A DNA stretch of 64,000 nt from Candidatus Versatilivorator sp. Its GTDB lineage: Bacteria; Acidobacteriota; Terriglobia; Versatilivoradales; Versatilivoraceae. The notes beneath the pieces were generated by a model. The model saw only the letters and a list, made by a program, of their open reading frames with translations, had not been told where the DNA came from and did not search any database. Location: contig OZ242296.1 in NCBI GenBank assembly GCA_965207735.1, positions 3,328,001-3,392,000 of the forward strand, given 5' to 3'. Below are positions 25,078 through 50,723 of the stretch, one piece after another (position 1 is the first letter of the stretch; every line of letters starts with the position of its first letter). The translations under genes were made by a program, and so were the position numbers.

Positions 25078-26985
25078 TCAGTCTGCCGCGATCAGGTCAT
25101 ATTTCTTCAGCTTCCGATACAGGGTTGCGCGACCGAGACCCAGGGCTCGAGCCGCCTTGGTAACGTTGTTGGCCGAGACTTCCATCGCGTGGGTCAGCGC
25201 CTGCCTCTCGACTTCCGCCAGCGTGAGGACTGCCGTCGGCGCCGTGGGATCTCTTCGGATAGCTACAATCGGCGAGAGTTGCGGCGGGAGGTTGTTTACT
25301 TGCAGCACGTCCGACGTCTCCAGCAAAACGCCGCGCTCGATGGCGTTCTCCAGTTCACGAACGTTTCCGGGCCAATCGTACTGCAGCAACAATCGCAAGG
25401 CGGCGGTGGATATGCCGTTGGTGGTTTTACCGATGCGTCCGGTGTGTTTTTTCAGAAAATGTTTCGCCAGCAGGGGAATATCTTCACGACGTTCCCGGAG
25501 AGGCGGAATCACGATGGGGAAGACGGCAACACGATAGAACAGGTCCTCGCGGAAGGCGCCCTCCTTGACCGCAACCTCCAGATTCTTGTTGGAGGCTGCA
25601 ATCAGCCGGACGTCGACGGGGACGGTGGTGGTCCCACCCACCCGCTGGATCTCGCGCTCTTGCAGGACCCGCAACAGCTTGGCTTGCAGAGTCAGGGGCA
25701 TGTCGCCTATCTCGTCGAGAAAGACGGTTCCTCCCTTGGCTCGCTCGAATATGCCGATTCTTTGCTTCGTCGCCCCCGTGAAAGCTCCCAATTCGTGTCC
25801 AAACAGTTCGCTTTCAATGAGCGCCTCGGGAATAGCGGCGCAGTTGATGGCCAGAAACGGCGCCTTTTTTCTCAGGCTGTTGAAGTGAAAAGACTTTGCG
25901 ACCAGTTCCTTGCCGGTTCCGCTCTCGCCGCGAATGAGCACCGTAACATCGCTTTCGGCAGCCTGTTTCACCAGTGCGTACACTCGCTGCATCGGGGTGC
26001 TGGCGCCTACCATGCCGGAAAAGGAGTAGGTCGTCTCCAGTTCGGTGCGCAAGCGGAGCACTTCGGCCTTCATGCGCTCGACTTCGATCTCTTTGGACAC
26101 ATCGCGGTACACGTAAAGATCGCCGATGAGGTCTCCTTGACTATCATGCACCGGGGCGGTGGACCGATAGAACAGCCGCCGCCTGGGCACTCGACCCGAG
26201 GTGGCCGTTTCAATCACCTTCCCCTCCCGCTCGAAGAGGAATCCTCCCTCAACTTCGGGTAGATCAGGTTCTTGGAACCTCTCCTTGAATTTCTTCGCGA
26301 AGCCTTTCGGCGACATCCGCTTCAGTTCGCTTTTCGCCATGTCGATCACTTTCTCGTACCCGCGATTGGCAAACACCAGATTCCCGGTGTTGTCATACAT
26401 GGCCATAGCGTCACCGGTAGCATCCAGCACGGCTTCCAACCTTTGATGACTGATGGTCAGTTGCCGCCGTTTTTCCGCCAACTCCTGTTCGACGTTCCAC
26501 TTCCCGACCAGAGCAAGCGTAATCTGTTGAATTTCTTCGCGCGCGAAAGGCTTTCGGATGTAGAGCACTTTGTGAAGCAATTCCATGTCGTGAATAATCT
26601 CGGGCAGGGACCTGTCCGTATAGGCGGTCATGATGACAACCTCGATGTCACGATCGATCATTCTCACCTGACGGATTGTTTCAATCCCGTCGATACCCGG
26701 AGGCATTCTGATGTCCACAAAGGCGACGGCAATGGGACGGTCGGACTCCCTTCCGTTCTTGATGAGGTCGTAGCCTTCCTCTCCGCTGGTCGCGTGCAGG
26801 AGCTCGAACTCCGGCAGAAATACCTCTTTCCCCCGGGCTGTGAATGCTTCCGCCAGCTCATCCGTGGCCGCCTTCATAAGGCTGGGCTTCAACATTTCCA
26901 CAAAGTCGGCGTGGATTTCTTTCTGGTCATCCACGATCAGCACTCTACGGTTCGGGTGATCTCTGAATTCCATCAACTTCCTCAT
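25078..26985 (-). CDS. Sigma54-dependent activator: REC-PAS-AAA+-Fis HTH
   Basis: LIVDD...DIRMPPG receiver; [48 protein letters not shown]. Confidence 0.95.
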
Positions 26986-27068
26986 GTATGTTGCCTTTGG
27001 TAATGAACGGAAATGCCTGGCTGTAAGGGTTCGCGCCCGGGAAAACCGACTGGGAACAGACTTGGGAC

Positions 27069-30000
27069 TTATGAGGGTTCCCTCTCGTCGACTTCGGGAT
27101 TCAGCGCCACCGAGGCCAGTCTCAGCTTGATGCGCATGGTTGTTCCTTTGCCGAAGCCGGCGCTCAAGGGGAGAATATTCCCGCCGGAACCAATGATAAA
27201 GTTGGCTATCGAGTGAAGACCCAGTCCACTCCCACCCTTCTTGGTGGAATAACCGGCAGTAAAGATAATCCTGGCTCGTTTCTCTTCGATACCGATGCCG
27301 TTGTCGATCACGTCGATATTGAGAAAGTCTTCCTGAACGTAGGCTCGGATCTGAATGCAGGGCTTCGCCTCCAGTCCCCTCGACTGCTCGAGCTCGTCAA
27401 TGGCTTCCATGGAGTTCTTGATCAGATTGACCAGCATCTGGTGAAACTTGCTCTCCTGAGTCCGAATCTCCCGGGGCGCGTTTTCACAATCAATCTCAAT
27501 TTTGACCCCTCTCTTGGCGATCGAATCCTGCAAAAGCTTGACCGCGTCCGCGATTGTCTTCCGCAGGTTGATGTCTTTGCGCACCATGGCCCCGCTGTCG
27601 AGCGACCGTTGGGTTCGGATGATATCGACGATGTGGGCAACCCGGCTTTCCACCCGCTTGACGGTCTGGGTCAACTCTGCACTTTGTGTGGCGAAGTCTT
27701 TGGCCAAGGCCAGAATGAACGGCATCACCTTTCGCCCCTGCGAGTCTGTTTGCAGGTACCGGATCCAATCCTCTCGATGGGCCTCTATGGCTTTCGCAAG
27801 GGCAGATATTCGGTGTACCAGCTCATTCCGGTCCAACTGCTCGCGAATAGTCCCCACTCCTGTGATCACGCTGTTGATCGCATTGCCGATGTTGTGGAGG
27901 ATGGTATCGACGATCTCCAACCTCCCCTGCGCAAATGCTTGCGACAAGGCTTCTTCAGCTTGCATGCGCTCAGTCACGTCGCGGAAGACGATCACGCCGC
28001 CTTTGGTCTGGCCCGAATCGTCCTGCAGGGGTCGCCCGCTGACGCTGATGTACACTCCTTCCGGAACTCTCGAATTGCGGATGAACATCTCCATTTCATC
28101 CGACGCCTCACCCCGGATGGCGCGCACGAGCGGAAGTTCTTCCGTCGGAATGGGCGTTTCTCGGTCGGGGAAGAAAATACCGTACTTCTTCGTCCATTGA
28201 TCGGGCCCGGAGTCCGTTTCACCAAAACCGACAATGAGCTCCGCGCTGGGATTGAAGATAGTGAAGTTCCCGTTTTCATCGGCGACGACCACGCCGTCAC
28301 TGATGCTGTTGAAAATGGTTTCCATGGCATGAGCCTGACCGCGCAGTTCGGCGATGGTCCGTTCCAATTGGGCCTCAGTCTCTTTGGTCTTGGTGATGTC
28401 GCGAAATACGATCACGCCGGCTGTGACCTCATTGGTTTCATCGCTCCGTATCGGGCGACCGATGACGTTCAGATAAACACCGTCCGGCTTGTTCTCATTG
28501 CGCACGAATACTTCGCAATCGTCTGTCGACTTTCCCCGCATGGCGCGCGCGAGGGGATTTTGCTCCAGTGAAAGATAGGTTTTCTCATCGGGATGAAAAA
28601 GACCGTATAACGTGGCCCATTCATTGGGTTTTGCCAACACCGCCCTGGTTCCGCTAATCCGATCGGCACTGGGGTTGCGTAATAGCTGACGGCCACTGAG
28701 ATCACCGACGATGATGCCCTCATCCATGCTGTCGAAAACCGTTTGCATGAGTTGGGTTTGATTCTGCAGGCGTTGGACCGTTCGTCTCAGGTCGGACTCC
28801 GTGACCTTTAGCCTGGTGATATCGCGGAGCACGATGACACCGCCTTCGAACTCGCCTGAATCGTCCTGCAGCGGTCTCGCGCAGACGCTGATGGAAACTC
28901 CCTCCGGCCTTGCCTGATTGCGTATGAATAACTCGACGTCGTCCAATGACTCGCCCTGCATGGCGCGCACGAGCGGAAGCTCACTGGATGGGATGGGGGT
29001 CTTTTTGTCCGGATAAAAGGTTCCGTAAGTCTCAGCCCATTGATCGGATGGGGTATCCGTTGCCCCCATGCCGACAATCTGTTCCGCGCGGGGATTGACG
29101 AAAAGGAATTCCCCATCCTTACCGGTCACAACCACGCCATCGCTGACGCTCTTGAAAACGGTCTCCATGAGTTGGGCCTGTTTTTTCAGTTGTTTGATGG
29201 TTTCATTCAACTGGGCTTCTTGCTTCTTATGCCGGGTAACGTCGCTGAAAACAACGACTCCGGCTTTGACTTTCTTGTTAGTGCCGTCATCGTTCGGTGT
29301 AAATCGCCCCTTCGCGCTGACGTAAGCACCCTCCCTGTTTTTTTCGTTGCGCACAAACAGTTCCATATCGTCTGTGGTTTCACCCCGTAGGGCGCGCGCA
29401 AGCGGAAGTTGATCTGGTGGAAAGCGTGTTTCCTTATCGGGATAAAAGGCGCCATATATCTGGGACCATTCCTCCGGTTTTGACTCCACTGGCCCGATGC
29501 CGACAATGCGCTCCCCACTGGGATTGAAGATTTGAATCTTTCCCTCTGCATCCGAGACGACCACGCCCTCGTCCATATTGTCGAAAACAGTTTCCATGAG
29601 CTGAGTCCGGCTGAGCAGTTCGGAGTTGGTTTGTTCCAACTTGATGTCTTTCTCCTCGATCCGGCTCAAGGCGTCCTGCAATTGTTGCGTTTCGCGCTGG
29701 AGGTCTTCGTTCTTGGCCTCCAAGAGCGTATGGAACCGCTCCCGAGATTTTTCGTAGCTCCACCCGACGACAGCGACAAAGAAACAGCCGACGAGAAACC
29801 TCATAGTGATTCTCATCCCGTACACGTTTCCGATGCCGATTTCCGATGCCGACATCATCCCTGTCAAACCGACGAAGAAGATTCCGACCAATACCATGCC
29901 CTCGCGGCGCCCGAGGAAATAGAATGCCAGCAGTGGAAATACGAGTTGGTAGTAAAGGAGACCGTCACCGGTCACAACCAGGCCCAACAGGCCGGTCGCT

Positions 30001-30227
30001 GATCCCCAACAGCCAAGGCGATAGGCCATTCGATCGTCGTTGCCGAGCCGAAGCGCGAGCAAGGATCCGGCCACTATCAGTGCAGTGACGACGTCGGTCC
30101 ACATCGCCGCCACGTCGTTTCTGATGTACTCGACGATCGAGAAACCGACCAGGATGAGTAACCCCGCGACGGCGACGACATAGTAGGTCTGCTTCCGGTA
30201 GTGGGCACCCAGGTTCTTGAATTCCAT
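27069..30227 (-). CDS. Membrane-bound sensor histidine kinase with four PAS domains
   Basis: ~5 N-terminal TM helices; four repeats of METVF..DGVVV..FNP..PLx[19 protein letters not shown]-box; NLIKNS, DNGIG, GSGLGL. Confidence 0.92.
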
Positions 30228-50442: not shown

Positions 50443-50498
50443 AATGGATGAATGTGGCCCTTGCGGCCGGAAGGCATGGCATGCCCATCACCACCAAG

Positions 50499-50514
50499 TG
50501 CAATTCCCGTGCCA
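50499..50514 (-). promoter_or_regulatory. Sigma54 (-24/-12) promoter of the giant adhesin
   Basis: Minus strand TGGCACGGGAATTGCA matches TGGCAC-N5-TTGCW exactly; AT-rich tract directly upstream (50515-50545). Confidence 0.85.
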
Positions 50515-50593
50515 AAGTAAAAAAAATTAAGTAAGTCCTTTTAAGGAAGCCACTTTGGATGTCGTGACCGCACAATGCTCAACTGACGCGAGC

Positions 50594-50723
50594 GTCTCAA
50601 CATGAGACTGTGATTCAACGACCTCGACGGCCTCTGTGGAAACAAGCCGCATGATTTCAGCTAGTTATAGGGAATTGGCAGGGGAGCGAGTCTCAATACT
50701 AAACCCAAGTCTCATCTTGAGAT
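50594..50723. promoter_or_regulatory. Candidate enhancer (UAS) palindromes for a sigma54 activator
   Basis: GTCTCA-ACA-TGAGAC (50594-50608), GTCTCA-TCT-TGAGAT (50709-50723), half site GTCTCA (50690). Confidence 0.65.

Follow-up and report, generated by a model that had tools for sequence, protein, structure and literature searches.

A predicted sigma-54 switch for a giant surface protein on a genomic island of Candidatus Versatilivorator sp.

Analysis of a 64,000-nucleotide stretch of the genome of Candidatus Versatilivorator sp. (contig OZ242296.1, positions 3,328,001 to 3,392,000; the window, below) revealed a genomic island that encodes a membrane histidine kinase, a sigma-54 activator and a giant predicted adhesin, the last preceded by a -24/-12 promoter and three candidate enhancer sites (Table 1). 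Judged from the sequence, it is very likely that these elements form a switch for the adhesin gene. In the mechanism we propose, the multi-PAS kinase would phosphorylate the adjacent activator, from His778 to Asp91, and activator dimers would bind the tandem distal pair of sites and the proximal site. The DNA would loop over the A/T-rich spacer, perhaps with help from integration host factor (IHF), sigma-54 would be remodelled and the promoter opened. The barrel-anchored predicted adhesin, secreted through its C-terminal barrel and serving adhesion, would be displayed only on signal. Since the activator would act in trans, the 23.5 kb that separate it from the promoter are immaterial.

The promoter, its candidate enhancer sites and the kinase-activator pair

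The -24/-12 element lies on the minus strand (50514-50499), exactly as an earlier note on this DNA had written it, 75 bp upstream of the likely ATG at 50424. It is the one strict match in the window, where 0.01 would be expected from 100 shuffles, and the strict consensus matches only once in the 5.26-Mb genome (a looser pattern, 17 times). At genome scale a consensus match by itself carries little weight, and the case therefore rests on the conjunction of elements. An A/T-rich tract adjoins the promoter just upstream, again as described earlier, and holds a partly symmetric element (50533-50555). Two palindromes had been claimed beyond it. The proximal one is indeed perfect, the distal one carries one mismatch, and a third, degenerate site between them had been missed. 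This third site was recognised from the aligned family promoters. There, two distal sites stand in tandem with a period of 19 bp, and this pair, the proximal site and an A/T-rich spacer keep fixed distances; counted from the promoter motif, family sites cluster near -93, -187 to -190, -205 to -212 and -229 to -231. The palindrome motif as first written has T at positions ±4, which proved to be a clade variant, the usual family consensus being G.

The specificity of the palindromes is argued from genome-wide counts and from a control of 153 sigma-54-like candidates in the genome. The proximal palindrome is the only perfect copy in the genome, and with their flanks the proximal and distal sites form an inverted repeat in which 18 of 21 bases match. 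A scoring matrix was built from 20 sites of relatives, none of them from the window, with positions ±4 masked; training loci score high by construction, and the window and most other loci lie outside the training set. The window promoter scored 38.6 and the next best of the 153 candidates 10.0, so that no other strong target was found among them. Nor did the three other autotransporter-like genes of the genome give a strong match to the window promoter. The genome encodes rpoN and three HU/IHF-family genes. No match to a sigma-70 promoter or a terminator was found upstream of the kinase.

The activator had been described as a receiver-PAS-AAA+-Fis protein. Its receiver, its AAA+ domain with intact GAFTGA and its Fis-type helix-turn-helix (HTH) are confirmed by Pfam; the PAS domain has no Pfam match in the window protein and is annotated in many homologues. 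Key positions are Asp91 of the receiver, Walker A at 353, GAFTGA at 400, Walker B at 422 and Gly618 in the HTH. The acidic pair of the receiver, Asp91, Thr120 and Lys145 are invariant in 14 homologues, and the receiver carries an insertion. The best PDB sequence match to the C-terminal 107 residues is ZraR (E 1.5e-16). The kinase is a four-PAS membrane protein, as claimed, with at least four hydrophobic segments and with H, N and G boxes that are conserved in 82 homologues; it gives no match to Pfam HisKA. Its N-terminal input is a membrane domain in the window and a receiver domain in other members, and the number of PAS repeats varies across the family. The kinase input thus appears, by sequence comparison, to be exchangeable.

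Four sigma-54 activators with intact GAFTGA, the island's included, are encoded in the genome, and the island pair is distant from the promoter with another regulator between. One of the three others might therefore drive the promoter, while the island pair serves another target. We regard this as extremely unlikely: the three have different recognition helices, the 153-candidate control offers the island pair no other strong target, and in the closest relatives the enhancer begins less than 100 bp from the activator stop codon. Moreover, the pattern of proximal site plus promoter was found in 4 of 41 relatives, all of them within the 7 carriers of this activator family, and in 0 of the 34 searched relatives without it.

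Table 1. Coordinates of island features in the window
Feature	Position	Strand	Description
Sigma-54 activator, 635 aa	25078..26985	-	Receiver, PAS-like region, AAA+, Fis-type HTH (Pfam)
Membrane histidine kinase, 1052 aa	27069..30227	-	N-terminal hydrophobic segments, four PAS, His778, HATPase (Pfam)
Sigma-54 -24/-12 promoter	50499..50514	-	Transcription start predicted near 50488 by standard spacing
A/T-rich spacer	50516..50555	-	Position conserved in family; possible IHF site
Proximal enhancer palindrome	50594..50608		Perfect; centre ~-113
Middle enhancer site	50690..50704		Degenerate; centre ~-209; 19 bp from distal site
Distal enhancer palindrome	50709..50723		One mismatch; centre ~-228
Predicted adhesin, 5428 aa	34138..50424	-	He_PIG, Big_12, Calx-beta and Big_9 repeats; C-terminal beta-barrel
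Fused hybrid regulator	30996..33500	+	GAF-PAS-HisKA-HATPase-receiver-winged-helix (Pfam); 72% GC
Broken C-terminal fragment of an unrelated sigma-54 activator	33690..34073	-	AAA-lid match; 33-43% identical to the four intact activators
Genomic island	23457..51827		Between radical-SAM gene and convergent VPS10/BNR gene
Left-end multicopy repeats	23517..24870 (approximate)		~15-230 overlapping matches elsewhere in genome over most of length
Right-end multicopy repeat	51075..51800		~50 overlapping copies in genome

Conservation of the circuit and of the site base at ±4

The distribution of activator homologues is patchy. They occur in 7 of 14 genomes of the genus, in 3 of 301 Acidobacteriota at E < 1e-140 (5 at 1e-40), in 3 of 77 genomes in the family of genome G336, and in 45 of 151 in the phylum of genome G335, whose locus L024 belongs to Latescibacterota; Poribacteria and Binatia records carry them as well. 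The closest named relatives, with 83% identity over the N-terminal half, are from Candidatus Versatilivorator and Terriglobia, both Acidobacteriota. For comparison of gene neighbourhoods, 57 of the 66 matches from one homologue search were taken with their flanks, and 83 distinct activator loci were compared in all, with 20 kb read per locus. L051 and L062 were excluded beforehand as duplicates. The metagenome matches L065-L130 were set aside because they are not full-length members: L065-L073 proved on reading to be shorter receiver proteins or cut, and L074-L130 were omitted for low identity.

Kinase, activator, promoter and enhancer had been expected to co-occur in relatives, and they do: the kinase lies upstream of the activator in 78 of the 83 loci (three of the five misses are at contig edges), and a strict promoter was called in 46. 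An adhesin-like gene is near the activator in 34. In L022, L023, L025, L030 and G008 the promoter stands directly between the activator and a downstream adhesin gene, the arrangement being present twice in tandem in G008; the open reading frame (ORF) in G002 runs to 10,800 residues. The adhesin gene is divergent in G001, G004 and L211, and there the promoter goes with the adhesin. The window order, with the surface-protein gene upstream of the kinase, recurs in G207, G125 and G337, where the promoter and three sites lie 17-35 kb from the activator and directly before large surface-protein genes, as had been predicted beforehand. Four genomes fetched with these (G418, G400, G427 and G338) gave no promoter call. 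The predicted promoter is thus seen to track the surface-protein gene across three gene orders. The notion that the window order is a broken rearrangement was dropped, the same order being intact in those three genomes.

A second promoter copy lies 2.7 Mb from the activator in G001, and in G419 one precedes another Calx-beta gene; the activator family therefore has targets in trans. The motif is retained ahead of homologous adhesin genes, as had been proposed, but the same circuit also precedes other genes, adjoining those for LRR, WD40, fn3 and FlgD-Ig proteins and the activator or kinase genes themselves. At L052:12124-19706 the kinase-activator pair is followed by a Tad-like pilus cluster (VWA, secretin, ATPase), with no strict enhancer call. 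In three Poribacteria loci (L031:12670-15300, L032:12240-14790 and L034:3440-5430) the promoter stands before the gene of a small secreted peptide (Cys-rich in L031 and L032). A radical-SAM or GNAT gene and one for an alpha/beta hydrolase come next, and the cluster might serve peptide or signal biosynthesis. Partial duplications of the 3' end of the activator gene lie between activator and promoter at L025:11984-12290 and in L233.

Several of these results weigh against the proposed switch. No strict promoter was called in 37 of the 83 loci, 49 have no adhesin-like gene within 20 kb, and the pattern of proximal site plus promoter misses 3 of the 7 genus carriers of the activator. The IHF bending suggested earlier fares unevenly: the IHF consensus with at most two mismatches is found in 38 of 48 family promoters against 9 of 48 control segments, and the window segment, with four mismatches, matches it weakly. 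A hybrid regulator beside adhesins in several genomes could contribute to their control too. In a second alternative the circuit is decaying or secondary: control of the adhesin would lie with the hybrid regulator or with a housekeeping promoter, and the insertion would have left the sigma-54 elements behind as relics. Hybrid regulators stand beside adhesins in the window (30996), elsewhere in the same genome near 300 kb, and in G008, G002, L025 and L026, and decay is seen within the family, where the activator of L178 is frameshifted in the HTH and that of G001 (G001:C1:1948529-1950433) is in three reading frames, through frameshift or assembly error, with its two promoters intact. In the window, though, the catalytic motifs of kinase and activator are all intact, the three sites and the promoter keep the family spacing, and six half-sites have changed in concert; G207 and G125 share the gene order but lack a long hybrid-regulator ORF in the interval from adhesin to kinase. 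We consider decay or a secondary role very unlikely.

The concerted change concerns the base at ±4, which is T in all six half-sites of the window and G in all six of L022 and L023. Gly618, at the turn of the activator HTH, occupies a position that is Asn, Asp or His in most homologues; among the best 120 activator-homologue clusters (at least 66% identity over the N-terminal half), Gly is found in 10. Of the 39 loci with Asn, Asp or His, 37 have sites with a majority of G at ±4; of the 9 with Gly or Ser, none has, and the second promoter of the Gly-type G419 has T at all six half-sites. In an ungapped match to Fis 53-96, Gly618 aligns with Fis Asn84, whose side chain is in contact with base pair ±4 in the Fis-DNA structures described in the parts seen of PMC4784862. 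According to the same portions of that paper, Asn84 prefers a purine on the contacted strand and does not admit thymine there. Since the T-type sites match Gly618, the island activator is likely the cognate one, and the sequence pattern points to this on the strength of about two evolutionary events; as a general residue-site code it is only a lead. Against it, the Fis rule marks the same base pair without predicting the direction seen, and there are counter-examples: L029 has His with T-type sites, and L198 (Asp) and L223 (Asn) are T-rich. The Gly proteins, moreover, form one main clade, with weak support (about 75), plus L057, giving at least two changes on the tree.

Gly618 and T-type sites are common to the window and a Latescibacterota clade. 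In a quick tree computed with the HTH removed, this clade nests among Acidobacteriota proteins with a Shimodaira-Hasegawa-like approximate likelihood ratio support of 95, which is consistent with transfer of the cassette between phyla. An independent origin of Gly618 in the window and in Latescibacterota was considered and is unsupported, 15 rows falling on one side of a branch with support of about 75; it is neither shown nor rejected. Five genomes combine a Gly-type activator, or one of its clade, and T-type sites before an adhesin with a His-type paralogue and G-type sites before its own gene. In the clade of His-type paralogues (L203-L218, L226) the promoter lies upstream of the activator gene itself, ~87 bp from its matched start, an arrangement that suggests positive autoregulation.

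The surface protein and the island

The surface-protein ORF is intact over 16.3 kb and open from 50442; the ATG at 50424 was chosen by eye against the ATGs of homologues. A hydrophobic stretch lies within the first 55 residues, as seen by eye, and the protein ends in Phe. Pfam assigns 27 Calx-beta, 9 Big_12, 4 He_PIG and 2 Big_9 stretches, and a weak Autotransporter match (26.1 bits against a cut-off of 26). A model of the last 400 residues, from an alignment of 21 sequences, is an all-beta structure of 18 strand elements, with a mean predicted local distance difference test (pLDDT) of 72 and a predicted template modelling score of 0.70, the last third being less confident. It resembles outer-membrane barrels generally, and the barrel profile has no sequence match in the PDB. 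In this barrel family (window 34141-35340) the first 240 residues are autotransporter-like and are followed by an extension, so that on the model the C-terminal barrel may be an enlarged autotransporter barrel. Elsewhere in the genome an in-frame stop divides another autotransporter-like repeat gene into two long ORFs (C1:2772422-2777461 and 2766467-2772418); it adjoins an IS-like gene and a group of genes reminiscent of a conjugative cluster.

Pfam detects no known ligand-binding tip domain in the surface protein, which shows structural repeats only, and N-termini vary widely among its homologues. The regulation could be as proposed and the product a calcium-stiffened spacer, a shield or a host-mimicking surface protein that limits phagocytosis. 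Other genes adjoining the circuit encode LRR or WD40 domains, and these, like Calx-beta, cadherin and fn3, count as eukaryotic-like domains in the sponge-symbiont studies PMC11706023 and PMC9531527, as far as the excerpts consulted go. Two points tell against a product other than an adhesin. The L052 circuit precedes a Tad-like pilus cluster, which is another attachment structure, and a long Ig/Calx-beta stalk carried by an outer-membrane anchor is a typical adhesin architecture. We hold such a product to be unlikely, but a possibility of some substance, and retain the predicted adhesin.

Along the minus strand come, in turn, enhancer, promoter, surface protein, activator fragment, hybrid regulator (on the opposite strand), kinase and activator. 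Among contigs of four runs compared with 22500-36500, no piece spans that region. The fragment and the hybrid regulator, between adhesin and kinase, were absent from the earlier account. About eight or nine long paralogues of the hybrid regulator are found in the genome, one of them 85% identical, and part of the activator fragment is common to the DNA beside that paralogue; the hybrid regulator is probably a separate insertion. Its copies include C1:3179237, 4211971, 1932938, 286953 and 328219. It has very high depth in related runs and often lies beside giant surface-protein genes.

The island occupies 28.4 kb between the radical-SAM and VPS10/BNR genes, both of which are found in all 14 genus genomes. 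Among eight sites compared, the same flank genes are 39 bp apart in G012 and G008, an empty site; they are 0.3-0.7 kb apart in G013, G005 and G009 and enclose 5-13 kb of other cargo in G004, G006 and G002. Cassette-bearing relatives hold the cassette at loci other than the window's. The view of the module as portable is supported by these empty sites and by an activator tree that mixes phyla. The radical-SAM/VPS10 junction (23457/51827; L239) is an insertion hotspot, with an unrelated 13-kb cluster there in G002. The third-codon-position GC fraction is 0.68-0.70 for kinase and activator, 0.85-0.87 for two host genes and 0.85 for the adhesin.

The repeats at both ends of the island belong to a degenerate family with dozens to hundreds of genome copies and no recognised ORF; left-end and right-end repeats are 67% identical over 441 bp, in inverted orientation. 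A Pfam scan of island ORFs and translations found no intact integrase or transposase. At ~51600-51790 on the minus strand there is what we take, from its sequence pattern, to be the short remains of the C-terminus of a tyrosine integrase, which have no Pfam match. Integration at a tRNA gene was rejected, no tRNA having been found in the window.

Significance and comparison with known systems

The hosts presumably live in sponges, to judge from lineage names such as Poribacteria, and the cassette appears to move between these likely symbionts. The parts seen of PMC11706023 and PMC9531527 describe sponge symbionts as enriched in Calx-beta, cadherin, fn3 and LRR proteins. Our literature search found no paper on the transcriptional control of these proteins in sponge symbionts. 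As a tentative proposal, which we would not yet favour, the cassette may be a display switch traded horizontally among sponge symbionts within the Acidobacteriota, Latescibacterota and Poribacteria, with swappable sensor and cargo, for surface proteins with eukaryotic-like domains, the residue at the Fis Asn84 position recoding ±4 and insulating co-resident copies. The cassette supplies a concrete promoter, activator and kinase that could be reassembled in a laboratory strain in order to identify the signal, and its enhancer-promoter motif can be used to read the regulon of uncultured symbionts.

Type Va autotransporters such as AIDA-I and BrkA, with which we compare the window protein together with giant adhesins built of Calx-beta/Ig repeats, likewise have a long hydrophobic N-terminus, a repeat passenger and a C-terminal barrel ending in Phe. 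Over its first ~240 residues, the barrel model can be aligned with the barrels of BrkA, AIDA-I, NalP and EspP (Z 13-14, rmsd 5.0-5.6, 212-223 residues aligned), and CymA and FhaC score higher (Z 16). The type Va barrel, however, is 12-stranded, whereas our model, at pLDDT 72, has 18 strand elements, and the window passenger is composed of Ig and Calx-beta repeats rather than a beta-helix. The giant adhesins of type I secretion systems (LapA/BapA type), which carry a secretion signal at the C-terminus, differ in that the window protein ends in a barrel; no ABC, MFP or TolC genes were found among the island ORFs scanned with Pfam.

Vibrio fischeri SypG, which controls the syp locus, and LuxO are also sigma-54 activators over a symbiont attachment trait; the comparison is one of function only. 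In the sections seen of PMC10162802, the sites of both have the same CA-N3-TG core as those of the window, with G for LuxO and T for SypG at the equivalent position, syp promoters are reported to be insulated from LuxO, and changing G to T at Pqrr1 reduced activation by SypG. The position thus matters, although its effect is not a simple one. The natural G/T site variants with their matched residues offer a direct test of insulation between paralogous sigma-54 activators, and the insulation of LuxO and SypG is itself named as an open question in those sections. SypG acts on polysaccharide genes through a multi-kinase phosphorelay. The window kinase is orthodox, with no receiver or Hpt domain detected by Pfam, and its predicted target is a protein gene, unlike the polysaccharide or small-RNA targets of SypG and LuxO.

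The closest likeness is to NtrB/NtrC and ZraS/ZraR, which share with the window an orthodox kinase, an activator of receiver, AAA+ and Fis-type HTH, palindromes, an A/T-rich spacer and a -24/-12 promoter; at the level of sequence, every testable feature of an NtrB/NtrC-type sigma-54 circuit is present. Unlike those systems, the window circuit has a PAS-like region and a receiver insertion in its activator, and its family has a variable number of PAS repeats and an apparently exchangeable kinase input, has giant surface proteins as its main predicted targets, is carried on an insertion and is patchy across phyla. Overall, we conclude that the wiring is ordinary, and that what the circuit adds is apparent cross-phylum mobility, exchangeable input and cargo, and a matched change of residue and site.

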